DNA of 64,000 nt from Minisyncoccota bacterium (GCA_041664265.1 JBAYLD010000001.1:40051-104050), one strand, 5' to 3'; numbered from the stretch's first letter, positions 4,360 through 52,055 are shown. Numbers and translations are program-made. Notes: generated by a model from the letters alone, not told the origin.

Positions 4360-5862
4360 TCAAACTCCGGCACCGTACCGCTCTTTCAGGTACTCGATAA
4401 AATAACGGCTGTTCGGATATTCTCCCGTCGCCCGCTTCACCAGGTCGGCGACGCGATATCGCCTACCGTGGCGATAAATGTTTTCCCGAAGCCATTCGCG
4501 CGGCGTCGCAAAGTCGCCTGCCGCTATTTTTTCAGACAAATCGGGAACGGCTCGCTGCATGGCGGTGTAGAACTGGGCAGCATAGAGCGTACCAAGCGTA
4601 TACGCGGGGAAGTTGCCGATATCCCCGACCGCCCAATGCATATCCTGCAAGACGCCGAGCCGATCATTCGGAACACTGATACCGAGATATTTTTTCATCT
4701 TGGCGTTCCAGATCGCAGGCAAGTCCTCAAGAGGGAGCGTCCCCTCGATCATCTCCTTCTCAATCTCGAAACGAAGGATGACGTGGAGATTATAGGTTAC
4801 TTCGTCTGCCTCGGTGCGAATAAGAGACGGCTCGACCCTGTTGATGATCCGCATAAATTCACTAAGGGGAATTTTCTTGAACGGCTCTGGGAATTCTTTC
4901 CGGATCTTCGGGTAAAAATACTTCCAAAATGCCGTGCTTCTGCCGATATTATTCTCCCAGAGCCGCGACTGCGACTCATGGATGCTTGCAAATGACGACT
5001 CCCCGAGCGGCGTGCCGAAGTGCCGGAGAGGCAATCCTTGTTCATAGAGCCCGTGGCCGGTCTCGTGAATCGTCGAGCCGAGCGCATACATGAGATCATC
5101 TTCTCGCATCCGCGTCGTGATGCGGACATCCTGCGTATGGAAGGACGCGGTAAACGGATGCGGGCTCTGGTCCAGCCGCCCTGCGGCATAATCGAAGCCC
5201 ATCTGCTCAGAGACAAATCGGTTGAACGCCAACTGTTGGTCGAGCGGGAACGCACCGAGGATACGCGCCGGGTCGACTTTGTCACCGGAGCGCACGAGCG
5301 CACCGATAAAAGGGACGAGGAACTGTTTTAGATCACTGAACAAAGCTTCAATACTTTGAACGGTCGAGCCCGGCTCATACTCGTCGATTAACGCGTCGTA
5401 GGGGGAATCATTGAAGCCGACGAGTCCTGCTTCTTCACGCTTCAGATCCACAATCTTCTTCAACCAGGGGAGAAACATGCCGAAATCGCTCTCCTCCCGC
5501 GCGCGCACCCAAGCGGCATAGGCTCTCGACGTTGTTTCTGACATCTGTGCGACAAACGCTTCCGATAGTTTCTTCTGGCGTGCATAGGTACGCCACGTCT
5601 CGGTAACAATCGCTGCGTTCCCTCCCGAGAGTTTTTTCGCATCGACTTGTTTCTTCAGCTTCGAGAGCAGCCGGTCATCATCGATCGCGGACAGCTTCTG
5701 ATGCGTGATGCCGTTGATGCATGCGAGTGCGTTCGCGCGCGCTTCGACCCCCTTCCTCGGCAGATACACTTCTTGATCCCAACTTAATACATCGCCGACC
5801 GAAGCAAGACGCGCAATCTCGATGAGGCGCTTTTTTAAGATCTTGAGAGAATCTGCCGCCAT
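4360..5862 (-). CDS. M32-family carboxypeptidase (carboxypeptidase Taq-like)
   Basis: 'HETGHGLYEQG' HExxH zinc motif typical of M32. Length about 500 aa. Confidence 0.75.
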   Translation of the reverse strand: MAADSLKILKKRLIEIARLASVGDVLSWDQEVYLPRKGVEARANALACINGITHQKLSAIDDDRLLSKLKKQVDAKKLSGGNAAIVTETWRTYARQKKLSEAFVAQMSETTSRAYAAWVRAREESDFGMFLPWLKKIVDLKREEAGLVGFNDSPYDALIDEYEPGSTVQSIEALFSDLKQFLVPFIGALVRSGDKVDPARILGAFPLDQQLAFNRFVSEQMGFDYAAGRLDQSPHPFTASFHTQDVRITTRMREDDLMYALGSTIHETGHGLYEQGLPLRHFGTPLGESSFASIHESQSRLWENNIGRSTAFWKYFYPKIRKEFPEPFKKIPLSEFMRIINRVEPSLIRTEADEVTYNLHVILRFEIEKEMIEGTLPLEDLPAIWNAKMKKYLGISVPNDRLGVLQDMHWAVGDIGNFPAYTLGTLYAAQFYTAMQRAVPDLSEKIAAGDFATPREWLRENIYRHGRRYRVADLVKRATGEYPNSRYFIEYLKERYGAGV

Positions 5863-10273: not shown

Positions 10274-10344
10274 TGCGGGTTCGTCTAATGGTAGGACACA
10301 TCCCTCTGGAGGATGGTATTGGGGTTCGAGTCCCTGACCCGCAG
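10274..10344 (+). tRNA. tRNA-Gln (anticodon CUG)
   Basis: Cloverleaf drawn by hand: acceptor TGCGGGT/ACCCGCA, anticodon stem CATCC/GGATG with loop CTCTGGA, T-loop TTCGAGT. No CCA encoded. Confidence 0.65.
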
Positions 10345-11958
10345 CAATCGTGGATTTTCATGTGCGATGACTGCGTAATCCTCTTTCGTTAAGCCGTCGT
10401 TTGTCGGTTCTAACGTCCCTTTTTCTTCCTCAACGGCAGATGACACTTTCGATATGCGCTCAAGCAGAATATCCGCATTAACCCTCAGCATCTTGTCGAT
10501 TACCTCGTGGTTCGAACCTAAATTGGCGAGAATGCTTCTTCGGGCCTTGCGATCATCGGAATCGTCTTTCTCAAAGGCGATCAATGCGCGCTCAGCGAAG
10601 TTGAAACCGCGCTCAGCGACTGCGAGCCAATCCCCGGCTCCATCATCGCTTGCCGCCATTTCAGCTTCCATGCGTTGTTTGTCCGCTTTGAGTGCCGCAG
10701 ACTTCGCGCGGAAGACATCCTCTGGGATCTCATCATTCATTCTCATGTTCACAAGAGCATCCATCCGGCGCACGCAATCAGCGAGGGCCTTCTTCTGGTT
10801 CTCGGATACTGCTTTGGTTTCCTGGCCTTCCTCCTTATCCATTTCGCGCAGTGCATCAAGCGCCCATGCTTTGAACTCGGGAGGAACGCTGTAATCCACA
10901 AGACTGCTCATCACCTGTGCTTCGAGGACTTTCTCTTCGATGGATCCTTGTGTGCAAACATAATCCTTGTGATGGGTACAATGATAGAAGATGTAGGAAC
11001 GCACCTCGCCTGAGGCGAGTTTCTTATACTTCCTCTCTGCTGTGATTGCCGCCCCACACACACCACATCGCATGTGACCACGATACGCGAACTCGTGCGT
11101 CTTCGGACGTGGGCGATCAGCCCTGCCAAGCAGGAACTGTACGCGATCGAATTCATCCTTGGTGACCATCGCAACGTGGTTACCCTTGCACCAATTGCCA
11201 CTCCCTAGAGGAAATTCATACTCGCCGTAATAGAACGGGCGAATGAATGTCAGGTAGACCAGACTGCGAGGGAGCGGTTTGTTGCCGTTGCTCTTTCCTC
11301 CTCTTGCGTGCGCACGAAGGCCCCACTCCTCGCCCGCAATCTTCCAGATTTGCGGCACGGTGTACTTGCCTGTAAGCATGAGGTCCCACATCTTACGCAC
11401 GAGATCGAATCGCTCTGGATCGACTAGGATTCGCTTCTTTCCGCGTTCGGCGAACTTCTCATTTAGATAACCAAGCGGAGCAGAACTTGGATAATCTCCA
11501 TTCCGAGCCTTCATGCTCGTACCGCGCTTCACATCCTGGCCCTTCTTCGCCGATTCATACTGAGACTGCGAGAGCGCCATTTGAAGCATCCATATGCCTG
11601 CTGGATTGTTCTCGAAGTGATAGACACAGAAACGTAATTCCTTCAGGTTACCGTCACGCAGCATATAAGTGATGTTCCCCGCGTCTATTTCGTTTCGTGA
11701 TAGCCGATCCGGTTGCCACGCCAAAAGACCTCGGCGTTCGCCCTTGCTGATGCGTTCCAGCATTTCAGAGAATGCCGGACGGTTGAATGGTTTGAATGCG
11801 CTTCTCTCTTCAACGATAAACTCGACGTCGAATCCAGGGAATGCTTTGAGTACTTGTTCTTTTTGCGCAGGGATTGATATCGCCTGACGTTCTTTATCCT
11901 CGCTGGATTTTCTCAGGTACGCGAAATACCGGATAGCTGCCTCTTTTGTCTTGGTCAT
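10285..11958 (-). CDS. Large serine recombinase (phage-type integrase)
   Basis: N-terminal resolvase domain 'YLRKSSEDKERQ', recombinase domain, zinc ribbon 'CGVCGAAITAE...YHCTHH', coiled-coil. 557 aa. Confidence 0.85.
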   Translation of the reverse strand: MTKTKEAAIRYFAYLRKSSEDKERQAISIPAQKEQVLKAFPGFDVEFIVEERSAFKPFNRPAFSEMLERISKGERRGLLAWQPDRLSRNEIDAGNITYMLRDGNLKELRFCVYHFENNPAGIWMLQMALSQSQYESAKKGQDVKRGTSMKARNGDYPSSAPLGYLNEKFAERGKKRILVDPERFDLVRKMWDLMLTGKYTVPQIWKIAGEEWGLRAHARGGKSNGNKPLPRSLVYLTFIRPFYYGEYEFPLGSGNWCKGNHVAMVTKDEFDRVQFLLGRADRPRPKTHEFAYRGHMRCGVCGAAITAERKYKKLASGEVRSYIFYHCTHHKDYVCTQGSIEEKVLEAQVMSSLVDYSVPPEFKAWALDALREMDKEEGQETKAVSENQKKALADCVRRMDALVNMRMNDEIPEDVFRAKSAALKADKQRMEAEMAASDDGAGDWLAVAERGFNFAERALIAFEKDDSDDRKARRSILANLGSNHEVIDKMLRVNADILLERISKVSSAVEEEKGTLEPTNDGLTKEDYAVIAHENPRLLRVRDSNPNTILQRDVSYH

Positions 11959-12609: not shown

Positions 12610-13037
12610 AGTCGTATATTTTTTGTGGCGCGAGGGACAAAGGGCATTCGTCGTTCCGAATCCGCGTCTAATAATTCCTACTCCGTCGTACTGGGGTATT
12701 TAAAAACGCCCCCATTCTAATAAGAAAAGTCGTACCAATGTTAGGTATAACTGCTCTTATTAAACTAGGGACGTTACACAAGTCACTGCTCTAAGGAAGC
12801 AGGCTTGGGTGACAAAACGGCCAAATATCACCTTTATCTGAGTGAGATCATTGCTGATCTGATTACTTCATTTGCCACGAGTGTTTTCATCGCTGTTGAT
12901 GATCTCGCTGCGGACCCGAGTAGCCTAGAGGTTCGCATTGTCCGGTCATTTCCGGTAGAGGGCTAGTTATTTCAATGTGCAACGTGTGGGATTGTCCCGC
13001 ACGGAGGTATTCTAGCATCATGTGATTTAAAATAGCA

Positions 13038-13200
13038 ATACGCGACTTACGGCATTTGTGGACACTTGCGATAAGGCCGTCACCCATCTGTTCACACACA
13101 AAGAGAGGTAGAGGGAGGAGTGAGGCGTTGCGAGCTGTTTGTGATCACCCATTCACACATCGCTACCCGTACATAGCCCACAAATAGCGTAAGTCGCGCC
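13038..13200. repeat. About 22-bp imperfect inverted repeats 115 nt apart in a 590-nt non-coding region downstream of the primase gene
   Basis: aatacgcgacttacggcatttgtgg (13038-13061) versus ccacaaatagcgtaagtcgcgcc (13178-13200). Confidence 0.5.
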
Positions 13201-14988
13201 CTATCCTAGTCGTGGCATTTTGCTGATGGCTATATTTCGGTCATTGCCATCGCTGCTAGATACAACGCGTATTCCAGTCTCTTCAAGTGGAGTCTTTAAT
13301 CTGTTGATTTCACGCGTTAGAGCAGACGGACTCGCTGGAAGACGGTTATCCGCGATTTTGTCGTCCATGGCCTGGTCCTTGAATGCCTTAAACAGTTGTC
13401 TCGGGCTGCCTTCCCACATGCCATCGTGCGCATTGACGATGGCAACAAGGATAGTGGCAACGGTATTGTCGTTGATTAGTTCCTCGCTCTGACTGTTTAT
13501 GTTGTGGAAGTACGCGGCAAGGAACGCTTCTTGGCCGATTCCCAGTGCTTCGGCGACTGCGCAACCCCACAATGCAAAATCTGCCATTCGTGGAAGCTCG
13601 TCCACCTTGATGTTAGGTTTTAAGGCCATCGCTTTCGCAACAGTGTCGTAAATTGCTCCGAGGATGCGAGGTCTAGCAACCTCGAAGTCAGCCATTAGAT
13701 CGTACTCCTGTCTGCGGTTGCTTTTGTCCATGCGTTCGAGCTTGAGCAGGAGGCTTCGTTCGAGCAGGTCCGCGCGGTTGGATGCGACGTTTATGCCGTT
13801 TATGCCTATGCTAGCCATGACGTAGCGGATCACGTCGTCATCGTTCGTGTACAGCTCGCGCTTGCTGAACCCTCCGCCGGTTATTGCCCGGCAGAGAAGA
13901 TCAGAAATCCAGTCAGGCATCTCCGATACGTTGTCGAAGAAGAGAAAGGCGTGATGGCCGAGCTGCTGGGCCAGGTCTCCCTCGTGGCGAGTCAGACTCA
14001 CGACCTCGATCTTGGAAGGGTCGATGAGCTTGCGCACGATGCGACTGAGCGTGGACTTCGCAGATCCCTGAGAACCGTACACATAGAGTGCTGGATGAGG
14101 CCAACCTGGAATATATGAAGCGACTAAATGCACGAGGAAGAGTGTTTGCTGTTCTGGATCGGTGATATTCACGAATTTCAGGACATCCCGCACCGATCCT
14201 CCCCGCACTGGTTCTACTTGCGGGGCAAGGTGCGAAAAGCGGCGAAAGAGCATCGGGACATCTGTCACAATGCTCCACCCCTCTTGTGTTATTCGAACCG
14301 CACGCCACTTCTTGTCGGCGAGGTCGTACCACACGGCTTCAGGTGTCTGAGCTATGCGATTAAAGAGTCGGTGTTCCTCGCACTCGTTGATGGCGCGGCC
14401 TTCGAGCAGACTAACGGCGTCTTTCATGCTCTCTCTGCCGGCTACGGTCTTTCCGCGCGTTAGGCGGTAGAATTCGCCACCGAGCCAGCGAGTGAGTGCG
14501 CCACTCCTGCAGGGCCAAACTTCCGAATGATCTTCAACAGGAATCCTAATATGAGCGACGTCATACTCGTCCTTAAACAAAGTGACGTTTGGGTTCTCCA
14601 GGATCATATTTACGAGTCGCGTAGACTGCGATGGTCCTTTTCCACCTTCACCGCTGTTCGCTTCTGCTAACTGAGCGAGTTTCTCGCGATTTCTCTCATG
14701 AGCAATCGATTCAATTAACGCATCAAACGTTTCGCGCAGATATTCATCATTAGGATACGGGAGTTTAGCCGTGGTATTCCATAACTGGACCTTCGGCCAT
14801 AATGCATCTACCGACTGTTTGTCTTCGGCTTCAATTCCTTTCATCAACCCATGCACGTATTCGTCAAAGAGATCTAGGCGCTCGAATTCTGGAATACGAA
14901 CTCCTTCGGGGACATCGGAAAAATGATAGAACGGATCGAACTTTTCATTTGGATTTAAAGTGCCGTTAGAGGCGATAATGTCTTTCAT
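13201..14988 (-). CDS. Phage/plasmid primase-helicase-like P-loop NTPase (P4/D5/VirE-family C-terminal domain)
   Basis: Walker A 'VYGSQGSAKSTL'. About 600 aa, with a domain order reminiscent of the D5_N plus primase-C/SF3 helicase type. On an integrative element. Confidence 0.5.
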   Translation of the reverse strand: MKDIIASNGTLNPNEKFDPFYHFSDVPEGVRIPEFERLDLFDEYVHGLMKGIEAEDKQSVDALWPKVQLWNTTAKLPYPNDEYLRETFDALIESIAHERNREKLAQLAEANSGEGGKGPSQSTRLVNMILENPNVTLFKDEYDVAHIRIPVEDHSEVWPCRSGALTRWLGGEFYRLTRGKTVAGRESMKDAVSLLEGRAINECEEHRLFNRIAQTPEAVWYDLADKKWRAVRITQEGWSIVTDVPMLFRRFSHLAPQVEPVRGGSVRDVLKFVNITDPEQQTLFLVHLVASYIPGWPHPALYVYGSQGSAKSTLSRIVRKLIDPSKIEVVSLTRHEGDLAQQLGHHAFLFFDNVSEMPDWISDLLCRAITGGGFSKRELYTNDDDVIRYVMASIGINGINVASNRADLLERSLLLKLERMDKSNRRQEYDLMADFEVARPRILGAIYDTVAKAMALKPNIKVDELPRMADFALWGCAVAEALGIGQEAFLAAYFHNINSQSEELINDNTVATILVAIVNAHDGMWEGSPRQLFKAFKDQAMDDKIADNRLPASPSALTREINRLKTPLEETGIRVVSSSDGNDRNIAISKMPRLG

Positions 14989-15244
14989 GATTAACAGTAA
15001 AATTAATAAAACCCGTAGAGGGATAGTGGCGGCGTGTCGATTGGAATACGAGACTTTCCGCTACCCCTCTTCGGGCTCTATGAACACTACTGTGCGCCGG
15101 GTTAGTCTCGTATTCCATAGAAGTCACTATGCCAGAGTACGCAAATTGGCTTGTGTCAATCTCTGGCCGCTATGCATCCGATGTTGAGGCAAAATACGTT
15201 TATGCCGCCGAAAAGCCATTACTCTAGATACAACTAACGTACCT

Positions 15245-15272
15245 TTAGTACCTTCACGCCACGTGGTAAAAT
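15245..15272 (+). promoter_or_regulatory. Candidate sigma70-type promoter (TTAGTA-16-TGgTAAAAT, extended -10) for the Cys-rich secreted protein operon
   Basis: -35 at 15245-15250 and extended -10 at 15264-15272 put the TSS near 15280, about 205 nt upstream of the ATG at 15488. Confidence 0.3.
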
Positions 15273-15282
15273 TGCTATGTGC

Positions 15283-15487
15283 GACAACAAAGGGCTAAAC
15301 GCAGGAGGAATCCCGCGCATGCCCGGAATAACAAAGTCTCGTCGAGAGTACTGAACCCCACGTTCAGCGTCTCTCGACGAGCCGTACTCCGAAAGGATGT
15401 TACGAGACCGCAAGGTCTGCTGGCGTGGGGTTCAGTGCTGTCATATGACTCCGCGCCGGTAATTACCAACATGACCGCCGGAGTCGT
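15283..15487 (+). promoter_or_regulatory. About 200-nt structured 5' leader with mutually exclusive helices (riboswitch/attenuator-like), ending in a hairpin that covers the SD of the downstream gene
   Basis: Helix 15334-15347/15367-15380. Segment 15350-15360 can pair either locally (15361-15366) or distally (15423-15434). The terminal helix 15446-15484 overlaps GGAG at 15479-15482. Confidence 0.35.
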
Positions 15488-16237
15488 ATGAAATATAAAC
15501 ACATCATCGCGGGCGTATTTGGATTATTCCTCCTCTTTCCTTTCCATCATGCCTCCGCCAGCCTTCTTTGGTGTGATCCACTGTTAGGAGGCTGTAGCAA
15601 TCCATTCAGTGGAGTGGATCAGAGCATTCAGCAACAGCAATCACAGGCCCAAGCACAACAACAGTCGTGGCAACGAATACAAGACAAAGAGAGCGCACTA
15701 AAGTCGCAGTATGGCTATGCTGCATACACGTCCTGCACAGCTAATATGCTACATATCGACGGTGGAGACATTGCTCAAGTCACAATGTATCTCAATGCGG
15801 ATGAGCCGTGCATGGCGAGCTACAAATCGAAACAAGAACAAGCGGCAAGCACGCAATGCACATCACTGGGAAACGGTCGCTATAGTGGCAATTGCACATG
15901 CGGTGCTGGATACACGTTTAAAAATAACGTATGCACGCCAATCACCTGTGATGCGGGCTACATTTTAAGGGATAGCACCTGTGTATTAGGAACTCAGTTC
16001 TGCACCAGTAAATTTGGCTCCAACAGCGTATTTAACGGCAAGCTGTGCGACTGCGCATCCGGGTACAAGTTTAATGAATTCTTTGACTCGAGAGCACAGT
16101 GCGTAGCAGTCACTCCGGCTAAGACAACCGGCTCTCATCTTGCGGCTAATCAAATCGCCGCGATCCTCTCGCTGTTGCAGTCCTTCGGTGCCGATGCAAA
16201 AACAATCGCTAGTGTAAAAGCTGCGCTCGGGCAATAA
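15488..16237 (+). CDS. Secreted cysteine-rich protein with repeated C-x-C-x2-GY-x(n)-C modules and a Gln-rich linker
   Basis: Signal peptide 'MKYKHIIAGVFGLFLLFPFHHASA'. Modules 'CTCGAGYTFKNNVCTPITCDAGYILRDSTCV' and 'CDCASGYKFNE'. Confidence 0.55.
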   Translation: MKYKHIIAGVFGLFLLFPFHHASASLLWCDPLLGGCSNPFSGVDQSIQQQQSQAQAQQQSWQRIQDKESALKSQYGYAAYTSCTANMLHIDGGDIAQVTMYLNADEPCMASYKSKQEQAASTQCTSLGNGRYSGNCTCGAGYTFKNNVCTPITCDAGYILRDSTCVLGTQFCTSKFGSNSVFNGKLCDCASGYKFNEFFDSRAQCVAVTPAKTTGSHLAANQIAAILSLLQSFGADAKTIASVKAALGQ

Positions 16238-16247
16238 TCATCGTGGC

Positions 16248-16607
16248 ATGCCGTACAAAAGCACTAAGCACGCATTCGTATGGATCGGTGGGTTAATAAT
16301 CATCGCGACGACAGCGTACGGAGCATCAAGGCTCTACGCGCCTAAGCCGCCAATATCAGAGGAACAATCAGCGGGTCAGCGAGTTTGCGATAAGATCAAC
16401 GACCTCATGGCGAAGACTGGCGGCACGATAGACCCTTCACTCACTGTTGCCGTCTGCATCGAGGCGAATAAAGACTGTGAGAATCGTTTGGGACCCCACT
16501 CTATATGGGCAGGAGCTGCTGATGTGAACAATGTCCCACATTGCGACTGCGACGATGGGTATCACTGGGCTACTGATGGTTCAGGAAAATGTGTTGCGTG
16601 GCAGTAA
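16248..16607 (+). CDS. Membrane-anchored or secreted cysteine-rich protein, paralogous module to the preceding gene
   Basis: N-terminal TM/signal segment. 'CDCDDGYHWATDGSGKCVAWQ' is the same CxCxxGY module. Confidence 0.5.
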   Translation: MPYKSTKHAFVWIGGLIIIATTAYGASRLYAPKPPISEEQSAGQRVCDKINDLMAKTGGTIDPSLTVAVCIEANKDCENRLGPHSIWAGAADVNNVPHCDCDDGYHWATDGSGKCVAWQ

Positions 16608-16884: not shown

Positions 16885-17081
16885 TGCTACTGCCTAGATC
16901 TCATCATCTGCGAGCCCGAATCTTTCCTCCTCGCCAAGCACGTTGTCTAGCACCAAGACATCGCGGAAGATGTGGTCCTCCGGTTCGGCAGCCTCTTCGT
17001 AATGCTTCTTCTCGTCTCGGTACAGGTAATTAACGATGCGGGTGAGAGCTTTGTGTTCAGATAGGTACATACCTATATCAG

Positions 17082-17591
17082 TTAGTCCCACCAGAAGCGG
17101 AACTCCTCTCGGGCGACCTCGAACGGCATCCCCGGTTGTGGAGGGGACACGGTAACTATCTCGCTCCACTCCCGACCATTGAAGCGTTTCTGCGTCTCGT
17201 TCTCTATCTCGAGCTCATACGACACCTCGTCAGCCTTTGCGACACGCGCGAACTGCTCTATTGCCTGTACGTCTCCTTCACTTAATGGAGAATCTCCGGT
17301 ATGTAGGTAGCGACGTATATACAGCACGGGGGAACCTTCGCGCCCGACCTCCAGCGTGTAGGTTCGTTTGCCGTTGTTAGGGTTAGGATGCCCGCTCACA
17401 TCAGCGAACTTGGCACGAGGGATAATGCGGTCTATCTCTAACAGCATCTCGCCGACATCCGAGCCTATAAGCTCATTGTACCCGCCAAGCGTACGCAGGA
17501 ACTCGATAGCGACTGGTAGAGGCACCTCTGCTCTCATACGCAGCGTGTCCTCAAAGACTGACAACAGGGCGTAGGTAGAGGCACGACTCAT
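17082..17591 (-). CDS. Hypothetical protein (island cargo)
   Basis: ORF only. Same strand as the flanking small ORFs at 16894-17169 and 17588-17779 (possible 3-gene operon). Confidence 0.3.
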   Translation of the reverse strand: MSRASTYALLSVFEDTLRMRAEVPLPVAIEFLRTLGGYNELIGSDVGEMLLEIDRIIPRAKFADVSGHPNPNNGKRTYTLEVGREGSPVLYIRRYLHTGDSPLSEGDVQAIEQFARVAKADEVSYELEIENETQKRFNGREWSEIVTVSPPQPGMPFEVAREEFRFWWD

Positions 17592-17779
17592 ACTTCGACT
17601 GGGAACATCTTCCGTCTTGCATTCGTTAAGGCTTCGTCCCTTGTCTCTCCGAAGCCAAGCACAGCACCGGTTGTCTTGCTCACCACGCGATACCCAATGA
17701 GCGTGCCGTCTCCCATATCGTCCTCATCTCCCCAAACAGCACCGTGTCCGAAGACCGGTTCAATTGTCATAGTTTGCAT
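17588..17779 (-). CDS. Hypothetical small protein
   Basis: ORF only. 4-nt overlap with the downstream ORF. Confidence 0.25.
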   Translation of the reverse strand: MQTMTIEPVFGHGAVWGDEDDMGDGTLIGYRVVSKTTGAVLGFGETRDEALTNARRKMFPVEV

Positions 17780-24501: not shown

Positions 24502-24625
24502 GAGTTTAACCAATAGTACTCTCACCACGCCACCTTCGCAGTCCGAAACACCGTATCCTTGCTCCTCGCGGCGGTTCTAACGTCCTTTAGGCACTGCAGC
24601 TCTTCGTCGCTCTGTAATTTTTTTG

Positions 24626-43012: not shown

Positions 43013-43084
43013 GGCCAGATGGCGAAGTGGTAACGCGACGGTCTGCAAAACCGTTATGCGCGGGTTCAATTCCCGCTCTGGCCT
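43013..43084 (+). tRNA. tRNA-Cys (anticodon GCA)
   Basis: Acceptor GGCCAGA/TCTGGCC, anticodon stem ACGGT/ACCGT with loop CTGCAAA, T-loop TTCAATT. Confidence 0.75.
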
Positions 43085-43104
43085 CTGGTAAGATATAGAT
43101 GTTT

Positions 43105-43192
43105 GCCGAGATGGTGGAATGGTAGACACGCGACGCTTAAAACGTTGTAAGCTTTAAATCGGCTTGTGTGGGTTCGAGTCCCACTCTCGGCA
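43105..43192 (+). tRNA. tRNA-Leu (anticodon UAA), type II with long variable arm
   Basis: Acceptor GCCGAGA/TCTCGGC, anticodon loop CTTAAAA, about 19-nt variable arm, T-loop TTCGAGT. Confidence 0.8.
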
Positions 43193-43208
43193 CTGAAGTA
43201 GCATATTA

Positions 43209-44381
43209 TTACCCTTTGATTTCATGAGGCAAATCAAGGATATTTTCGGCTGTCTCCATACTTCCCCGCTGTTTCCTTTGAATTTCCAGCCACCGGTTGA
43301 CCACCGGTTGCCCAAAATCCGCCGCAAGAGCAGCTCTCGGATTCAAGAGATCTATCGCTGCCCGGTAGGAGGAAGGTGCCACATGCGCGTATCGCATCGT
43401 GGTCATGATAGAGGTATGCCCCAAGAGTTCTTTTATTGTGTTCAGGGGCACGCCCTTCATGGAGAGGTGCGAGGCGAACGTGTGCCGCAAGGCGTGCCAG
43501 GTTATCCTCCTGATCCCTGCTTTTTTACATGCTCGCGTCAGTGCGGCACCTAAGCGGCATGCGCTGAAAGGATGCTGCCGTTCATCAGCAAAGACAAACC
43601 CTGATTTTCGCTGCCTTCTGAGCAGGATATCGTAGACATCAACATCAAGCGGAATGGGACGCTCTCGGTTGCTCTTTGGAGATGTCAGCGTCTTGGCACG
43701 ATCGACAAGCGAGTGCCGCACCACCAGGTTTTGGTTTTGCCAGTCGATGGATGTCCACTGGAGCCCCCGCAACTCCCCCAGCCGCATGCCGGTCCGAAGG
43801 CCGGTGAGAATTAAGTCGTACAACACGCCATTCAGCATTCCCTTCGCTCCTATAAGCAACAACTTGGCATCCGCTTCGGAGAGATAGTTTGTCTCAGGCG
43901 GCGGGCACACGAGCCGCTTTATCCGCGGAGGCGTTGATTCAAGCTGTAGCCATTCGTAGGCCGTGGTGAGGCAGGTGTTCAACACGGTTAGGCGATTGTT
44001 CACTGTCTTCCTCGCCGCCCCCTTTTGAAGCGCGTGTGCCTTGTACCGTTCAACATCATGCGCTGTGATTTGCCCGAGGGGCATCTTGCCGAAGAATGGC
44101 AGGAGCGATGATCTGAGGATGTATCTCTTGGTTTGGCATTCCGAAGCCTTGTTATTAGAGATTACGTACTCGTCAAACCAACGTTGGGCAAATTGCGCAA
44201 ATGTCTGTCCTGATTCGTTCGGTTTGGCATTTATGTCCTCACCGTGAGCCAATTTTCGCCGCAAGACAACTTCGTATGCAAGCGCTGCCGCTCTTGAATT
44301 CTCGGGACTTCGCTTTCGATAACGGACATAGTTGAACCAGAAGTCGATCCACCAGGAATTCTTTATCTTTCGTACTGCCAT
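43209..44381 (-). CDS. Tyrosine-type site-specific integrase
   Basis: C-terminal catalytic region 'HALRHTFASHLSMKGVPLNTIKELLGHTSIMTTMRYAHV' (R..HxxR...Y). tRNA-adjacent. Confidence 0.85.
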   Translation of the reverse strand: MAVRKIKNSWWIDFWFNYVRYRKRSPENSRAAALAYEVVLRRKLAHGEDINAKPNESGQTFAQFAQRWFDEYVISNNKASECQTKRYILRSSLLPFFGKMPLGQITAHDVERYKAHALQKGAARKTVNNRLTVLNTCLTTAYEWLQLESTPPRIKRLVCPPPETNYLSEADAKLLLIGAKGMLNGVLYDLILTGLRTGMRLGELRGLQWTSIDWQNQNLVVRHSLVDRAKTLTSPKSNRERPIPLDVDVYDILLRRQRKSGFVFADERQHPFSACRLGAALTRACKKAGIRRITWHALRHTFASHLSMKGVPLNTIKELLGHTSIMTTMRYAHVAPSSYRAAIDLLNPRAALAADFGQPVVNRWLEIQRKQRGSMETAENILDLPHEIKG

Positions 44382-44387
44382 ATTATT

Positions 44388-44651
44388 TCAGCCTATGGAC
44401 TCAACCCGGTGCTTCTGAAGGAACAACAGCAGGCCCCTTCTCGCGAAGCGGACGCTACCGCCCACTTTGTAGAACGGAATGCGCCGCTGTTCTTGTAATC
44501 GTCGTACGCTTGATACGGATATTTTTAGGAATTTCGCAGCTTCAACAACGGTTAGCAATTCCGGCACCGGGTCGAATCCTGTCGGTTTATTTACATCTGT
44601 CAAAGAGCAGTGCGCGGTCGGTGCGACCGGCGGGCTTTGTAATCCTACCAT
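44388..44651 (-). CDS. Excisionase / AlpA-family HTH DNA-binding protein
   Basis: 'LLTVVEAAKFLKISVSSVRRL...IPFYKVGGSVRF' Xis/MerR-like winged HTH. Directly upstream of the integrase. Confidence 0.6.
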   Translation of the reverse strand: MVGLQSPPVAPTAHCSLTDVNKPTGFDPVPELLTVVEAAKFLKISVSSVRRLQEQRRIPFYKVGGSVRFARRGLLLFLQKHRVESIG

Positions 44652-44760
44652 AAGACCAATCTATAGCTTCATGTGGCGGGTGTAAGAAGGGATATTTGGG
44701 CTGAAGGGACAAGGCGCACAACAACGAGTATGTGTATCGCACCTGTCAGGCGGATTTTGC

Positions 44761-44789
44761 TTGACAAGCAAAAAAGGTCTCCCTATACT
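44761..44789 (+). promoter_or_regulatory. Near-consensus sigma70 promoter TTGACA-17-TATACT driving the 5-gene operon
   Basis: -35 at 44761-44766 and -10 at 44784-44789, with the ATG at 44823. Confidence 0.5.
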
Positions 44790-44822
44790 TTGAGCCATAA
44801 AAAGCAATGTCATATTAATAAT

Positions 44823-45416
44823 ATGAAACAAAGCAAGCCTATAGACGAACTCCCGAAAAACGCTAAATTTGTCCTGCCTCCATTTGCTATCGTGATGAAG
44901 GTTGGGCCTCATTCTGGGATGTCGTTAAACGAGATTGTTGAATCGAAGCACAAAGAAGAGGCGCTATACGGAGTACATTATTGGGGGTACTCCGGCAATC
45001 TTTGTCATCCCAGGCGTGTCCTTGATTTTGTTTCGTATGTTTTATCATTCAAGCAAGGGCCACCTAGTTTGCTGCTTATTGAAACAGAAAGTAATTACAG
45101 TACAAGTATTGGTCATATCAACTGCTTCTCAATAGATAGTAAAAACTATGAAAAGTTTGATGGCCCAATTCAACTGCAAGGAGCTCAATATGCATTTGTC
45201 GCACGAAACCTTCACAGGGTGGATCGTGATTTTCAACTCGACCGTTATTCAGTCATAAGTGGCAAGAACGATGGCAAGCCGCTAAGCTTTCATCTCCGGC
45301 AACGAGTCAATAAGGCCTTTGTTAAGAGGACCCCGCGAGCCAAGACATCTCACATATCGCATCTTGCGTACATGGCACAACTTTCTGCGCCGTATGTGTT
45401 TTGGCTAAAGGAATAG
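44823..45416 (+). CDS. Hypothetical protein (first gene of the island operon)
   Basis: ORF with no recognised motifs. Start at MKQSKP (44823) downstream of the consensus promoter. Confidence 0.4.
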   Translation: MKQSKPIDELPKNAKFVLPPFAIVMKVGPHSGMSLNEIVESKHKEEALYGVHYWGYSGNLCHPRRVLDFVSYVLSFKQGPPSLLLIETESNYSTSIGHINCFSIDSKNYEKFDGPIQLQGAQYAFVARNLHRVDRDFQLDRYSVISGKNDGKPLSFHLRQRVNKAFVKRTPRAKTSHISHLAYMAQLSAPYVFWLKE

Positions 45417-45419
45417 GCT

Positions 45420-46262
45420 ATGAATAAGCGAGGATTAATACTAGACCTCGATAATACATTATACAATTGGGTCGATGCTTTTCTTCCTAGTTTCCGAGCT
45501 ATGATTCACAAGTTATCACACGAGCTTAGCATAGAGGAAGAGGAGATACTTGACGATTTCCGTGATGTATATCTAAAGCACGGCACCGTAGAGTACCCCA
45601 GAGCTGTCAATGAGCTAACCCTTTGGGACAGAAACAAGATCTCTGATAAAGAAAGAAAACGAATTTCTGAGATTGTCGACAAAGTCTTCTCCATCAATTA
45701 CCGGAGTCATTTACGTCTTTTTCCCAATGTACGAGAAGTTTTAATGTGGACTCGAGAAGAAGGGATCCCGGTAATAGGTCTTTCTGATGCTCTTGAACGT
45801 TGGGTCTGTTATCGGCTCAGAATCCTTGGAATCGAGAAGTACTTTGCAGGCCTCTATACATGGCAGCATGATCAATGGTTTGATGATCGTCATCCGCATC
45901 ATAGTTCTATAAAAACACGCGTCCAGCTTAATAGCAACGAATTGAAACCAAATTTGGAAGTTGTTAATCGAGTTCTTGCGGATTTCTCATTAAACAGGGA
46001 AACCACATTCATGGTGGGAGATAGCCTATCAAAGGATATCGCTGTAGCACAGACTGCTGGGGTCAATGATGTCTGGGCCCGATATGGCACACGCCCGCAT
46101 GAGCTAAATCTTAATACTCTTCGACGGATTACTCCTTGGTCTGAGTCGGAGAAGGCTAAGGAGAAGAACGCCAAGTTACACATTGTACCTACTTTCATAA
46201 TTGATGACTTTCATGAACTAATCGGCCTGATCGGCACTCGTAGACCAAAGCTTTTTGACTAG
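45420..46262 (+). CDS. HAD-superfamily hydrolase (phosphatase-like)
   Basis: Motif I 'LILDLDNTLY' (DxDxT), motif IV 'MVGDSLSKDI'. Confidence 0.7.
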   Translation: MNKRGLILDLDNTLYNWVDAFLPSFRAMIHKLSHELSIEEEEILDDFRDVYLKHGTVEYPRAVNELTLWDRNKISDKERKRISEIVDKVFSINYRSHLRLFPNVREVLMWTREEGIPVIGLSDALERWVCYRLRILGIEKYFAGLYTWQHDQWFDDRHPHHSSIKTRVQLNSNELKPNLEVVNRVLADFSLNRETTFMVGDSLSKDIAVAQTAGVNDVWARYGTRPHELNLNTLRRITPWSESEKAKEKNAKLHIVPTFIIDDFHELIGLIGTRRPKLFD

Positions 46263-46268
46263 GAAAGA

Positions 46269-47351
46269 TTGATGCACTTCGGAAATGTGGAACTTGATGC
46301 AGCATTTATAGATGCAGAGGATATCGTCGCCAAGCTGCATTTCCTCGACCAAATGGAAAGACGATGGCCATATAATCCTGCAAAGGGCGTCTCTTTGTCC
46401 GAGCGTGTGGCCTGCTCCCTAACCCAACTTCCACCTGAACTACAGCAATTCGCTCTCGCCGTGTTCACTAATGTAATATACCTCCCAGATACACTCCTAA
46501 GAGAGTCATGGAGCTACCTGGCAAGCAAGATCGCTAGAGACCTCGGTATCACAGTATGTAACCTTTTCGAGCAATCTCACCTCTTGGAAGTTGATCCTAG
46601 TGGCCTTATCCCGACTTTTCTCCATGAAAATAAAGTGCATGGCCGCCTCGATACAGATCACTTCTCTCGTCTGCAGTCAATTGATGAATTGGCTAACAAT
46701 CTGCGGCTTATTGGTTTATCTGACAAACAAGAAGAGGGATCTGTACATGGAATTCGTTTGGCTTTTAGTCGACCATTTTGGCTACTTCTCTCAGATAACG
46801 TTCTCAGCGGAACCTCGGTCGCATCCGATCTAAGCCGCTGTGACCGTCTGATTAATGCTTACTCGAAGCTCGGTACTCCAAAGATAATCCCAGTAACGCA
46901 AGTTCTTACGTCCTCAGCCGAATCCTCCGTGCTTTCATCCTGGACCACTACATTCGCTCTCCGCTTTGACAAACAGTTTCAAGTTCTGCCTGGTAATGAA
47001 GATTGTAGCCTATTTAGCAGACGGGATACATTAGACGGAGCCATACGTCTTTGTGACTGGTTTGCTAGCCAAGATTGGTTTTCTAAGGACGATCGCTTAA
47101 CCGCGACCTTACAGAAGAGCGGAGACAACATGGCATATGGTTATAAAAGGGGAGGATGGACTATTGTCACTCCAAACTGCCCCACAAACTCACTTCCAAT
47201 TCTATGGTATGAGCGGGAAGGTGTATATAAGGCCCCCTTTCCAAGGATAATGTCAAGGACATCTCAAATGAAAGGGCACGGAGAGGAGTTGACGGAGGAC
47301 GCCATCTCCTTGGCGCCCCGAGTTCTCAAGAAGTTAGGGGTGGTTGACTAA
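46269..47351 (+). CDS. Hypothetical protein, paralog A (N-terminal 'FxNVELDAAF' motif)
   Basis: ORF only. Shares an N-terminal motif with the next gene. Confidence 0.4.
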   Translation: MMHFGNVELDAAFIDAEDIVAKLHFLDQMERRWPYNPAKGVSLSERVACSLTQLPPELQQFALAVFTNVIYLPDTLLRESWSYLASKIARDLGITVCNLFEQSHLLEVDPSGLIPTFLHENKVHGRLDTDHFSRLQSIDELANNLRLIGLSDKQEEGSVHGIRLAFSRPFWLLLSDNVLSGTSVASDLSRCDRLINAYSKLGTPKIIPVTQVLTSSAESSVLSSWTTTFALRFDKQFQVLPGNEDCSLFSRRDTLDGAIRLCDWFASQDWFSKDDRLTATLQKSGDNMAYGYKRGGWTIVTPNCPTNSLPILWYEREGVYKAPFPRIMSRTSQMKGHGEELTEDAISLAPRVLKKLGVVD

Positions 47352-48409
47352 TGCGCACTTACTTTGATGGAGTCGAACTAGATGCAATATTCCATTCCAT
47401 CCGAGATATGCCAATTGTCCTTGTTGCTACACCAAACTATGAGGAACGTTCGATTGGGTTCTCGCAATGGTTTCTCCATACTTGTCACTCTCAAAAGATT
47501 GATCCAGCAAAAATATTCGCTCAATTCTTGTGGCCTCAAGGAACCTCTTCGCGAGTCGATCTTCTGGAAAAATTAAAAATATCTCAGATTGATAAGCTTT
47601 CTGAACAGCTTCAGTATTGCGCATGGACCCGATCTGTCTTCAGCTACCCAGATGACTTTAATGAAAGACAGGTTATTGATTTAATTCATGAAGCAACTAA
47701 TAAATTTAGCGATGAGCCCTTTAGTCTGATTATAGATATTTCCTGTATGCCTAGGCGAGTAATAGTATCTGTGTGTGATGCTGTTGTCGAGAAAATTAGA
47801 TGTGTTGATAAAGCAGTCCGCCCCCTAGTTTTTTTCGTATACGCGTCGCCGAAAAAGTATGCGGCGATGCGGTACGCGCAGAATATCGGCAATGTTAAAG
47901 GTTATTTCTCTGGCCGTCCCATTCACAATTGCCCTTCCGATCATGTGACCGCTCTGATTTTTGCAAGTTTACAGGGGTACGAAGGCAAAGTGCTCTATGA
48001 TGAGGTCCGAAGCAGGATCAGAAGCTCGGTAACTACATTCGTGGCGGTAAGTGGAGCAGATTACCAAACATCGCTCGCGACAATGAGAGCAAACCAATTC
48101 CTTATGGAGCAGAGAGACATAGACGTCTCGTACTATTTTTCTTTAATGGATGGAATGGAGAAATTAGCAAAACGCATCGAAGCCGAAGGTTTGGTGGGGG
48201 GAGGGAGTGGACTTTCTAGAATGGTGTTAGTCGCTCCCTTCGGCCCAAAGGTTTTTACACTTGGGGCATATTTCATGCTTTCTAACCTACGCTCAGTCAA
48301 TGACTCCATCCAAACTGAAATTGCCCACGTCAGCGGCTTTCAGTATCTTTCATTGTACTCGCTCGGGCTAAGTCATTTTAACGTATTTAAACTATGTGTG
48401 GAGATCTGA
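47351..48409 (+). CDS. Hypothetical protein, paralog B (N-terminal 'FDGVELDAIF' motif)
   Basis: ORF only. Start overlaps the stop of the previous gene. Confidence 0.4.
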   Translation: MRTYFDGVELDAIFHSIRDMPIVLVATPNYEERSIGFSQWFLHTCHSQKIDPAKIFAQFLWPQGTSSRVDLLEKLKISQIDKLSEQLQYCAWTRSVFSYPDDFNERQVIDLIHEATNKFSDEPFSLIIDISCMPRRVIVSVCDAVVEKIRCVDKAVRPLVFFVYASPKKYAAMRYAQNIGNVKGYFSGRPIHNCPSDHVTALIFASLQGYEGKVLYDEVRSRIRSSVTTFVAVSGADYQTSLATMRANQFLMEQRDIDVSYYFSLMDGMEKLAKRIEAEGLVGGGSGLSRMVLVAPFGPKVFTLGAYFMLSNLRSVNDSIQTEIAHVSGFQYLSLYSLGLSHFNVFKLCVEI

Positions 48410-49067
48410 TTCTGTGACGGTAATAAAAATCTGCGATGTGAGAAAGCCGGAGGTAGCATCTTTTTGTGCTTCATGCGGTGCAGAAATGATTGGCCTACAC
48501 TGTATTTGGCACCCTCCGTCCGGAGAGAAATTAGCAACTTTCCAGGATATTTTTAGAGTAGTGCAAGGGCGATGCAAGTGTGTTTTAGTTACCCGTCAAA
48601 AGGATATTCCAACAATCATAGACATGATACAAGGGATGGCATGGGACTATATCCAACTGCATTCGGACTGGGCCCTTAGCAGTATCAATCAGCTTAGGGC
48701 GAGACTGAGTGAAAGCGGCAGATCACTTGGCTTAATCGGTGTTATTGAGATCAGTATGCAAGGCATAACACGAATTAAAAAAATTGCAGAAGCTACAGAT
48801 ATTCTTCTTCTTGATAGCTCGATTCGTGGTGGAAGTGGGACATCCGCGTCATCTGCATTACTTGAACAGGCGGTATCGCATATTCAATCCAAGCCCTTTT
48901 TAATTGCCGGGGGACTTCGAGAAGAGAATGTTTCTCATATAATAGAAAAATATCACCCGTGGGGAGTCGATGTTCAGTCCGGGGTTGAGAAGCCCGGCGG
49001 CAGCAGAGAAAAAGATTTCGACATGATACGGGGGTTCATCTCTACCGTGCGATCCCCAACACGATGA
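48396..49067 (+). CDS. Phosphoribosylanthranilate-isomerase-like (TrpF-fold) TIM-barrel enzyme, standalone with no other trp genes
   Basis: 'IKICDV' (compare IKICGI), 'YIQLHSD' (LHG), 'LLDSSIRGGSGTS', 'LIAGGLREENV...WGVDVQSGVEKPGGSREKD' match the TrpF C-terminal phosphate-binding pattern. Confidence 0.5.
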   Translation: MWRSDSVTVIKICDVRKPEVASFCASCGAEMIGLHCIWHPPSGEKLATFQDIFRVVQGRCKCVLVTRQKDIPTIIDMIQGMAWDYIQLHSDWALSSINQLRARLSESGRSLGLIGVIEISMQGITRIKKIAEATDILLLDSSIRGGSGTSASSALLEQAVSHIQSKPFLIAGGLREENVSHIIEKYHPWGVDVQSGVEKPGGSREKDFDMIRGFISTVRSPTR

Positions 49068-49762
49068 TATGCAAGATCTGTATTTAACTCCTCTTTAACA
49101 GTTGAAAAAGTATGTTTAGCGATATTGGGAACATAGGTAACATAAAAATAGTCTTGGCACTACACTTTGATCTTTGACGTGACACCGTGACACTATGCGC
49201 TATCGCAAGGTAAGCACGACACCGGAAGGACACGAAGGACGCGAGAATTGGACATCTGTACCTCGTGGTTATTCCGATGAAATCGGCCAGTCGTTCCGAT
49301 TCAAATCGGCCACCCTGTCGGAGCGAAGCGACGCCGGCTTTTTAATTCTGTCTCATAATGACTTTCTCAGGTCAAGCCGGAATGTTTTTTTCTCATGGAT
49401 CCTCCCTTCATTTTTATTTTATGGGCGTTGTGAATCAGACGATCGAGGATGGCGTCGGCGATGGTAGAATCACCGATATGCTCATGCCAGTTCTCTATCG
49501 GTAACTGACTGGGAATGATCGTTGAGGCCTTTTAGGGAGGCGTACCGACGCTGGATAATTTAAGCTGAAGCTGAAGCCATTAAGTCACCGGTCAAAATTT
49601 ACCGGAGGGGTTCAATGGCAGCAGAAAGGTTATCCATGCGCACCATCAGAGAGATTTTAAGACTGCACTGGGAGCACCATCTTTCCCAGAAGCAGATAGC
49701 CATAAGGAAGAGGATTTGGAGTGTATCGTAACTTTCGTCGGAGCTCGCTTTTTGTCGGAGGA

Positions 49763-50497
49763 TTAAACTTCCTTTTCCACGCTCGCGATGATATCTCGAA
49801 CAAGACCATCCAAATTCCAGAACGGGTCACCGGTATGGAACCGCGAAAGCTTCTCCACAATTTTTTTGTGTTCGGGCGCACACATTGATGGTAATCCGAA
49901 AACTGACAGCCATGGTTGGGAGTTTTGTACAACATTATTGAAAATTTCCGAGACATGCCATGAAAACATGTCGTAGTCATCTCCGCGATATCGTGGGTAA
50001 TGTTCGAAGAAATATTCGTAAAAAATAAAATGTAATAATTCGTGCGCAATGACAACATTTACGTACCGTTTGTTGCGGTGGCGATATGGAACTTGGAAGG
50101 TTTTATCATCAAGAAATCGCGGATAAATACCCCAGATCGTAGAATATGCGATGTACTTCCCTTTTGGCCAAGGATAATCGCCGAAGATTTGTCGAACGAG
50201 TTCATCAAACTTTGGTTCAATGTCCCGCCATTTGCGCTCATAGTGTGCAAGATTTGAGGCAATACTTTGGGCCAAATCTTCATACTTGTTTTTTACGAAT
50301 CGAATGACATCGGTACGGCAACCGACAAAGCGTACGCCTTGAAACCACTTTTTGCACGTTTGATATTTATCGAGTACGGCCCATTTTAAACTTCTACCGC
50401 TATTATATTCTGCATCTGAGACAAATCTGAAAAAGCTGGCGACATCCTTATTTGCGTCAGCTCTAAATATTATCCGTTTGCGTAATCTATATCCCAC
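49763..50497 (-). CDS. Hypothetical protein with HExxH motif ('VVIAHELLHFIFYEYFFEH'); candidate metallopeptidase downstream of the radical-SAM gene
   Basis: HELLH plus a downstream Glu. Same strand, 57 nt after the rSAM stop. Confidence 0.35.
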   Translation of the reverse strand: MGYRLRKRIIFRADANKDVASFFRFVSDAEYNSGRSLKWAVLDKYQTCKKWFQGVRFVGCRTDVIRFVKNKYEDLAQSIASNLAHYERKWRDIEPKFDELVRQIFGDYPWPKGKYIAYSTIWGIYPRFLDDKTFQVPYRHRNKRYVNVVIAHELLHFIFYEYFFEHYPRYRGDDYDMFSWHVSEIFNNVVQNSQPWLSVFGLPSMCAPEHKKIVEKLSRFHTGDPFWNLDGLVRDIIASVEKEV

Positions 50498-50554
50498 AAA
50501 ATTGAGTGGCAGAGATTATTTAATCTCTGCCACTCAATAATAACATCAAGCGAA

Positions 50555-51940: not shown

Positions 51941-52055
51941 TTCCCCTCTCCAGATAATAGAACGCGGAGGTTTTTGACCCTCCCGCTCAAATTATGAAGC
52001 AACTATGGGAATTACTCGGCTTCTGTTTCTGGGTTCGCATGATCGAGGAGGCGAG

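Follow-up and report, generated by a model that had tools for sequence, protein, structure and literature searches.

Predicted exported proteins with EGF-like cysteine modules, encoded behind a LOOT RNA in an integrative element of the Patescibacteria

P1 and P2 are two adjacent genes on a mobile element in a 64,000-nucleotide stretch of DNA from a Minisyncoccota bacterium (GCA_041664265.1, JBAYLD010000001.1:40051-104050). This whole stretch is referred to as the window, and positions are counted from its first letter. P1 and P2 were shown to be real, conserved genes. It was further shown that P1 belongs to the core of the element, where it neighbours the replication gene, and that its cysteine-module cassette is exchanged wholesale between otherwise near-identical elements. 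The two proteins are read, tentatively and at somewhat less than even confidence, as exported, disulfide-stabilised, EGF-like envelope proteins from the surface operon of a tRNA-sited element of the Patescibacteria, where they would govern surface recognition. The parts of the two genes are as follows.

15488..16237, + strand: P1, 249 aa, predicted secreted protein (open reading frame (ORF), homologue alignment, AlphaFold2 model)
15488-15559, + strand: P1 predicted signal peptide, aa 1-24 (inspection and homologue alignment)
15560-15838, + strand: P1 Gln-rich helical N-domain, aa 25-117, with Cys 29, 36, 83 and 108
15839-16111, + strand: P1 variable Cys-module cassette, aa 118-208, with Cys 124, 136, 138, 149, 154, 165, 172, 187, 189 and 205
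16112-16234, + strand: P1 conserved two-helix tail, aa 209-249 (AlphaFold2 model, mosaic identity)
16248..16607, + strand: P2, 119 aa (ORF, homologues)
P2 aa 9-26, + strand: N-terminal signal-anchor or signal peptide (conserved hydrophobic segment)
P2 middle region, + strand: variable, with Cys 47 and 70 (homologue comparison)
16476-16592, + strand: P2 conserved four-Cys module, aa 77-115, nearly invariant in six homologues

Both reading frames reported by the first-pass annotation of the window were recovered at the coordinates above. The three motif copies it had listed were also found, as CTCGAGYTFKNNVC at P1 aa 136-149, CDCASGYKFNEFFDSRAQC at P1 aa 187-205 and CDCDDGYHWATDGSGKC at P2 aa 99-115, together with its poly-Gln tract, QQQQSQAQAQQQ, at P1 aa 48-59. 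A CxCxxG[YFW]...C regular expression applied to six frames of the whole 64 kb returned these three motifs and one unrelated match. Shuffled sequence yielded a mean of 0.4 matches and a maximum of 2, so three matches inside 700 bp are not due to chance. A search of 5.8 billion clustered proteins found four homologues each for P1 and P2. At 100% identity, P2 matches an NCBI protein labelled ‘Candidatus Paceibacterota bacterium’, and the P1/P2 locus recurs on contigs of up to 213 kb.

Signal or anchor segments had been proposed at both N-termini, and sequence inspection together with conservation across the family points to export of both proteins. P1 opens with MKYKH, followed by a 14-residue hydrophobic core (IIAGVFGLFLLFPF) and HHASA|S. 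A22 and A24 of its AxA site are invariant across an alignment of five homologues. By inspection this fits a cleavable Sec-type signal, which has a basic n-region, an h-region of 7-15 residues and small residues at -3 and -1. The N-terminus of P2 is basic, and a hydrophobic segment of 18 residues (IIAATAYGA) is conserved; it may serve as an uncleaved anchor. Two other export routes were rejected. Neither protein carries the lipobox of a lipoprotein, and the P1 C-terminus was discounted as a sortase-dependent cell-wall sorting signal, as it contains no LPXTG, forms an amphipathic helix (mean hydropathy near 1.3 by hand calculation) and belongs to a unit that is N-terminal or internal in other proteins.

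The cysteine counts of both proteins are even, with 14 in P1 and six in P2. The repeated CxCxxGY...C module described at first is present as part of a larger unit with four Cys, C-x3-[FWY]G-x-[NH]S-x-[WF]-xG...C-x-C-x2-G-Y...C. P1 contains two full modules (C124-C149 and C172-C205) and a half module with two Cys (C154-C165). The two proteins had been presented as a pair, and they are adjacent in the window. In L015 and L016, however, which hold the closest two P1 relatives for which sequence downstream exists, P2 is absent, so P1 and P2 need not act jointly.

Three contigs (L001, L002 and L017) carry sister elements in which the backbone of the window's element is kept. In L001, a tyrosine integrase and an HTH_17 protein replace the serine recombinase. 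Identity to the window is 87-92% for the P-loop replication protein encoded next to P1, 93% for the small backbone protein orf169 and 98% for orf63. P1 itself is a mosaic, with 73-97% identity in the N-domain, 75-91% in the tail and 24-42% in the Cys-module region, which also differs between elements in length and in the number of modules. The clearest case is L016, where the N-domain is 97% identical, the tail 91% and the cassette 42%. In L002, DNA homology is unbroken from 12709 to 15837 and returns from 16112, with breakpoints that flank aa 118-208 exactly. P2 shows the contrasting pattern of a nearly invariant single module and a variable middle region. Variation of the cassette by a diversity-generating retroelement (DGR) was rejected, as no reverse transcriptase is present among the scanned element ORFs and the changes are swaps of whole modules with insertions and deletions.

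The role in surface recognition is favoured because P1 is core, exported, hypervariable and carried on a mobile element. Under the proposed mechanism, P1 would be cleaved after Ala24 and would undergo oxidative folding outside the cell. Its Gln-rich helical hairpin may act as a stalk or oligomerisation unit, while the rigid stack of modules would display a variable binding surface. The C-terminal two-helix unit, also found in proteins of the Candidate Phyla Radiation (CPR) that have peptidoglycan-binding domains, would hold P1 at the wall. P2 would be a membrane-anchored protein with one invariant module. Together the proteins would form a coat on the carrier cell and control its surface recognition on the element's behalf. 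The likeliest form of this role would be the exclusion of related elements or phages, with specificity set by the swapped cassette. The superinfection-exclusion or host-attachment roles first suggested are plausible, and both the swapped cassette and the core position fit them.

The module had initially been likened to EB or EGF-like units, and the EGF part of this comparison is borne out in form. The PROSITE EGF_2 expression, C-x-C-x(2)-[GP]-[FYW]-x(4,8)-C, fits P1 at aa 136-149 only; the last loops of the remaining two modules, at 11 and 9 residues, are longer than it allows. P1 scored 18.4 bits against the Pfam family cEGF (PF12662; cut-off 26.6) and P2 had no match, although P1 relatives match EGF-type families. 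The modules carry four Cys each, against the six Cys and three disulfides of the EGF domain. The EB part did not hold, as neither protein matched the EB module (PF01683) and the best relative, P0024, reached 17.5 bits against a cut-off of 24.3. P1 and P2 were not matched by DUF5874 (PF19202; cut-off 27.1 bits), for which single scans of relatives gave 22 bits for P0009 and 16 bits for P0011. Neither P1 and P2 nor the small backbone proteins had a match in PHROGs, NCBIfam or PDB sequences. The module has an EGF-like form, but P1 and P2 cannot be shown to belong to any curated family.

Two AlphaFold models of P1 have a mean predicted local distance difference test (pLDDT) of 68 and 70. The predicted fold consists of helices at aa 41-121, beta hairpins at aa 124-207 and helices at aa 220-246. 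A long Gln-rich helix (aa 41-75) packs on a second (aa 95-121) in a domain with four Cys. The Cys-module hairpins have block pLDDT values of about 65-85, with module values near 80, and the two-helix C-terminal unit reads LAANQIAAILSLLQSFGAD..IASVKAALGQ. Weak matches to PDB folds were obtained for the cysteine-rich domain (CRD) of EphA2, the EGF domains of Pfs25 and the CRDs of TNFR, all of which are disulfide-rich hairpin stacks. A relationship to phage tail fibres found no support: tblastn of P1 and P2 against 50,697 phage records gave no match, the best match among viral structures (BFVD) was not significant at E = 0.057, PHROGs returned nothing, and the element has no structural genes.

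The wider family was recovered by a profile search of 1.84 billion cluster representatives, which found 267 proteins at E <= 0.001. These fall into three classes. The first contains relatives with the full architecture, consisting of a signal peptide, an ‘LKSQYG[YL]..Y.SC’ helical domain and tandem modules. The second consists of module-only proteins. The third comprises large secreted proteins in which the P1 tail unit follows the signal peptide and also occurs as internal repeats, adjoining PG_binding_1 and TIG domains. Among 134 module-bearing proteins, the Cys count is even in 109 and an N-terminal hydrophobic segment is present in 112. Pfam matches among 77 members were to TIL (17), cEGF (14) and DUF5874 (8), and EGF_TEN and FXa_inhibition were also scored by P1 relatives. 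The best DUF5874 match has E = 3e-18, and this profile covers two consecutive modules, for example aa 140-198 of P0009.

Family members end in one of three ways, with a P1-type tail, an aromatic ‘KGFWSRLKGWFGF’ tail or a transmembrane anchor, which look like alternative means of retention in the envelope. The aromatic KGFWSRLKGWFGF tail recurs at the C-termini of many members, among them P0009, P0011, P0014, P0019, P0033, P0040, P0063 and P0067. It resembles a so far unrecognised signal for envelope anchoring or sorting in the Patescibacteria.

The P1-type tail bears on a different account, in which P1 is a Cys-rich secreted antimicrobial or effector and the membrane-anchored, module-sharing P2 protects the producer. 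Small secreted disulfide-rich proteins are common toxins, and P2 is adjacent to P1 with a module in common. The account is nevertheless very improbable: the two closest P1 homologues have no P2 beside them, searches of bacteriocin and toxin families gave no match, export or processing genes are absent, and the P1 tail is common to structural proteins associated with the wall.

P1 and P2 lie on an island of 14 kb with a GC content of 0.50, against 0.54-0.57 in its flanks. Its remaining features are listed below.

10274-10344, + strand: tRNA-Gln, at the left end of the element
10285-11958, - strand: large serine recombinase (PF00239 and PF13408), with its 3′ end overlapping tRNA-Gln
13201..14988, - strand: P-loop replication protein of 595 aa (primase/helicase family, by homology), divergent from P1
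16618..16884, + strand: third gene of the operon, about 88 aa, basic, no export signal, 80% identical in L002
16856-16882: hairpin after the third operon gene
16894..17779, - strand: small backbone genes of 58/91 aa, 169 aa and 63 aa, 71-98% identical in L002

The order along the island is tRNA-Gln and recombinase, two small ORFs, the P-loop gene, the LOOT RNA with P1, P2 and the 88-aa ORF, and the three small ORFs on the minus strand, for which Pfam, PHROGs and NCBIfam gave no family match. The recombinase, which contains resolvase and recombinase zinc-ribbon domains, is located at the element edge next to the tRNA, and the overlap between these two genes recurs in L009. Against the C-terminal ~500 aa of Prim-Pol/Toprim fusion proteins in L009, L010 and L012, the P-loop replication protein shows 36-41% identity. 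It is also 28% identical (E = 1e-24) to gp37 of Microbacterium phage Zeta1847, annotated as a helicase or primase. The description of the region as a phage-like island goes too far. The island is mobile and carries the serine recombinase, the homologue of a phage-type primase/helicase and defence cargo, but virion genes are absent: ORF scans against Pfam and PHROGs found no capsid, portal, terminase, tail or type IV secretion genes.

Several observations were made on the DNA of the element and its surroundings. A 14-nt direct repeat, CGGTTCTAACGTCC, occurs at 10405-10418, in the 3′ part of the recombinase gene, and at 24572-24585, after an AAA_13 gene; about 0.02 chance occurrences were estimated for such a repeat. 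The two copies are tentative candidates for the element ends, and a serine recombinase needs no such repeats. The divergent intergenic region near the start of the P-loop gene contains a perfect 14-nt inverted repeat, TGGAATACGAGACT / AGTCTCGTATTCCA, with a 48-nt spacer (15042-15117), which may be an origin or operator. The region 15000-15500 has a fold z of -7.2. Contig L001 carries an Avd-like gene and a reverse transcriptase, a DGR-type pair, at 954-2346, about 8 kb from its P1 homologue, as well as a group I intron match (65.6 bits) at 4727-4979 beside the tyrosine integrase of the element. In L015, the P1 homologue is followed at 1571-2251 by a sortase gene and a gene for a CsoR-like small protein, in the position of P2 in the window. 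Elsewhere in the window, a second probable island (43013-52000) begins with tRNA-Cys and tRNA-Leu, followed by a tyrosine integrase (43209-44381) and a block of low GC content (0.45) with genes for a HAD hydrolase, a PRTase-CE protein, a PRA isomerase-like protein and a radical SAM enzyme.

Fourteen loci of the wider family were examined, and each proved to lie in a mobile-element context, in the form of serine or tyrosine recombinases, primase-helicases and defence cargo. The more distant loci include the following.

L007, L008: Prim-Pol/VapE, membrane proteins, ArdC-N-like and SymE/AbrB-like genes, then cargo of type III restriction-modification, SduA and Abi
L009, L010: Toprim primase and serine recombinase
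L011: type III restriction-modification
L012: Prim-Pol and resolvase

These loci belong to one element family, because the recombinase and the P-loop domain are homologous across them, and the Cys-module protein is a hallmark gene of this family. In L007 (8952-11886) and L008, the LOOT-led operon further includes a multi-pass membrane protein whose outer domain is large, an N-anchored protein of 124 aa and a four-helix membrane protein, and is followed by the ArdC-N-like and AbrB/SymE-like genes; all of these are orphans.

The distribution of P1 is relevant to a second account, in which P1, with or without P2, is a lysogenic-conversion adhesin that alters the attachment of an episymbiotic CPR cell to its host bacterium or to surfaces. 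The adhesin would be beneficial cargo of the element, and its variable cassette would track the diversity of host surfaces. Patescibacteria are generally inferred to be episymbionts. The export signals, the rigid stack of EGF-like modules, the wall-associated tail and the swapping of the cassette all agree with such a role, as does the sortase gene (Pfam 76 bits) that follows the closest P1 homologue, which is 89% identical, in L015. An adhesin is still judged unlikely. P1 lies with the replication gene in the conserved backbone, outside the region of variable cargo, and stays with the element family even where cargo and integrases are very different. The family is also rare in binned genomes: a narrowed family alignment found two loci among GTDB species representatives, in a scan limited by its search patterns, and a GTDB scan with the P-loop protein found nothing.

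The favoured role in surface recognition is accompanied by a proposal for how the operon is controlled, which concerns the RNA upstream of P1.

15292..15418, + strand: LOOT RNA (Rfam RF03000), 56.4 bits against a gathering score of 46.4, model positions 1-121 of 121
15419..15487, + strand: leader between LOOT and P1 (folding analysis)

LOOT has been described as a metagenome-derived RNA without an assigned function (PMC7779021, PMC7657543, PMC5737381) and is filed by Rfam as an sRNA gene with metagenomes as its source (PMC7779021). In the literature that was searched, nothing was found on the function of LOOT or on DUF5874. In the window the RNA ends 69 nt before the P1 start codon. LOOT lies upstream of the P1-family operon and on the same strand in 13/13 related loci with upstream DNA. 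Ten of these score above gathering, at 62-97 bits, and three score 37-45 bits at the homologous position. The RNA was observed in this place in the window (15292-15418) and in L001, L002, L007-L013 and L015-L017.

A segment beyond the Rfam model covaries with hairpin 2. The 22 nt that lie 3′ of the model pair over about 20 bp with the apical half of hairpin 2 in 12/13 loci; in the window the tail at 15419-15440 is complementary to the apex at 15344-15362. Covariation was judged by duplex energies with shuffled and non-cognate controls, as the MAFFT alignment was too inconsistent for a column-wise count. The duplex energies range from -22 to -41 kcal/mol, with z of -2.8 to -7.6 against shuffles. 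Cognate combinations have a mean of -29.2 kcal/mol against -17.6 for non-cognate ones and are the best in 7/9 cases. The duplexes contain 37 G·U pairs against four A·C mismatches, an excess which suggests that pairing occurs in RNA or in single-stranded nucleic acid of this strand.

Downstream of the tail, the segment 15442-15460 has two alternative pairing partners, the tail and 15471-15490, a stretch that includes the GGAG at 15480-15483 and the AUG. The predicted minimum-energy fold (-96.5 kcal/mol) contains the tail-apex pairing and a hairpin at 15442-15490 that buries both GGAG and AUG. When the minimum-free-energy fold of LOOT alone, a proxy for the Rfam consensus, is enforced (-87.2 kcal/mol), GGAG and AUG are free. 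From this modelling the leader appears to be laid out as a translational switch, in which the LOOT fold and a hairpin that hides the ribosome-binding site (RBS) are mutually exclusive. Translation would be gated by the leader, with the RBS free in the consensus fold of LOOT and otherwise hidden by the downstream hairpin.

Nine further LOOT RNAs were recovered from IMG/VR by a pattern scan with Rfam confirmation. Genes led by them include the following.

L035: restriction-modification methylase with S subunit
L022: secreted PG_binding_1 protein with membrane proteins
L038, L039: zinc-ribbon membrane proteins
L029: membrane-anchored nuclease
L032, L036: portal gene and SU10-type capsid gene, in a true phage

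Several of these contigs share the serine recombinase, and L035 also encodes the P-loop protein at 50% identity. Since independently found LOOT RNAs lead other genes, a riboswitch dedicated to the P1 family was rejected, and LOOT is regarded as a general operon leader of CPR phages and mobile elements with the P1 operon as one client. That LOOT leads defence and envelope genes elsewhere supports the surface-recognition reading. A type II hammerhead ribozyme match (46.5 bits) was observed at 8351-8421 of L037, an IMG/VR contig met by chance through the DNA pattern.

The portal and capsid operon behind the LOOT RNA of L032 may also be taken to favour a third account. Here the element would be virus-like, either capsid-less and of the vesicle type or dependent on a helper, with P1 as the receptor-binding spike of a transfer particle and P2 as its membrane partner. 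The cassette of P1, a core gene, is hypervariable and receptor-like, the same-operon neighbours in L007 and L008 are multi-pass membrane proteins, and the P-loop protein has a phage primase/helicase homologue. A spike is improbable all the same. Virion, packaging and vesicle-formation genes are present in none of the elements, no significant match to viral proteins or folds was obtained, and P1 has no membrane anchor. Scans of IMG/VR with P1 and with the P-loop protein found no close relatives of either, and terminal overlap, a sign of a free circular genome, occurs on no contig.

Several points weigh against the reading of P1 and P2 as envelope proteins for surface recognition behind a LOOT-based switch. 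The P1 models are of moderate confidence only, with a predicted template modelling score (pTM) of 0.32-0.33, and fold searches with them, including PDB and BFVD, gave no significant match. P1 falls below every curated threshold in Pfam, PHROGs and NCBIfam, as does P2. The RBS switch was computed for the window and close relatives only. A P1-type gene lies downstream in 0/9 of the independent IMG/VR LOOT loci, and one independent LOOT leads a phage portal/capsid operon. The data do not separate exclusion from a role in adhesion or transfer. A more extensive proposal covers a so far undescribed class of capsid-less, tRNA-sited elements of the Patescibacteria, each uniting a serine or tyrosine recombinase with a primase-helicase, a LOOT-led membrane/secreted operon and defence cargo; in these the P1 family would serve surface recognition and LOOT would be a cis-acting switch for the operon, and also for late or cargo operons of CPR phages. 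Taken as a whole, it has a rather small chance of being correct.

The systems closest to P1 and P2 in form are the EGF, cEGF and TIL modules (PF12662, PF01826) and DUF5874. The C-terminal half of the P1 module, C-x-C-x2-G-[YFW]-x(n)-C, follows the EGF-type pattern, with predicted beta hairpins and a predicted extracellular location. The P1 modules differ in adding their own conserved N-terminal half, C-x3-[FWY]G-x-[NH]S-x-W-xG; the modules of both proteins have four Cys instead of six, and the host is bacterial (CPR). DUF5874, an uncharacterised family, spans two consecutive modules in close P1 relatives but does not reach P1 or P2, and the N-domain and tail lie outside its profile. Variant surface proteins (VSPs) of Giardia offer an analogy only. 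They are likewise secreted, Cys-rich, modular and highly variable between copies, but are unrelated in sequence (CxxC motifs), eukaryotic, and varied by expression switching and not by cassette exchange. The LOOT copy of the window agrees with the Rfam family in its full length, score above gathering, hairpins and GNRA loops. It differs from an sRNA gene in that LOOT is here always a 5′ leader in CPR elements and phages, with the extra covarying 3′ segment outside the model.

In role, the closest systems are the surface-exclusion or aggregation proteins of plasmids and prophages, such as PrgA/Sec10 and PrgB of pCF10 among Gram-positive conjugative plasmids, and the prophage protein Ltp. The analogy is functional. 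Surface-exclusion proteins are element-encoded and exported or membrane-anchored, and P1 and P2 have both properties by their context and predicted export signals. Like these proteins, P1 may be exported and kept on the carrier cell, and its predicted helical stalk with a variable head may correspond to their helical stalk, globular or variable head and polymorphic specificity. In contrast, no similarity of sequence or fold exists, P1 and P2 have neither LPXTG nor lipobox, and the elements do not encode type IV secretion.

The system is new in three respects: the architecture of the protein, its constant association with a family of integrative elements in the CPR, and the genomic setting of LOOT. 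The architecture is uncharacterised and has several hundred distant representatives, with a signal peptide, a Gln-rich helical domain, EGF-like modules of four Cys and one of three C-terminal anchors. The integrative elements described here form a family that always carries it, and through them the orphan LOOT RNA is placed for the first time in a consistent gene context. Little is known about the mobile elements of the CPR/Patescibacteria, organisms whose way of life depends on surface contact with other cells. If the proposed switch is correct, the LOOT leader would be a new regulatory RNA, and this would be its first biological role. The elements would gain a route of cell-to-cell recognition or exclusion. 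Should the cassette determine surface specificity, the proteins would offer a handle on who exchanges DNA with, infects or attaches to CPR cells.

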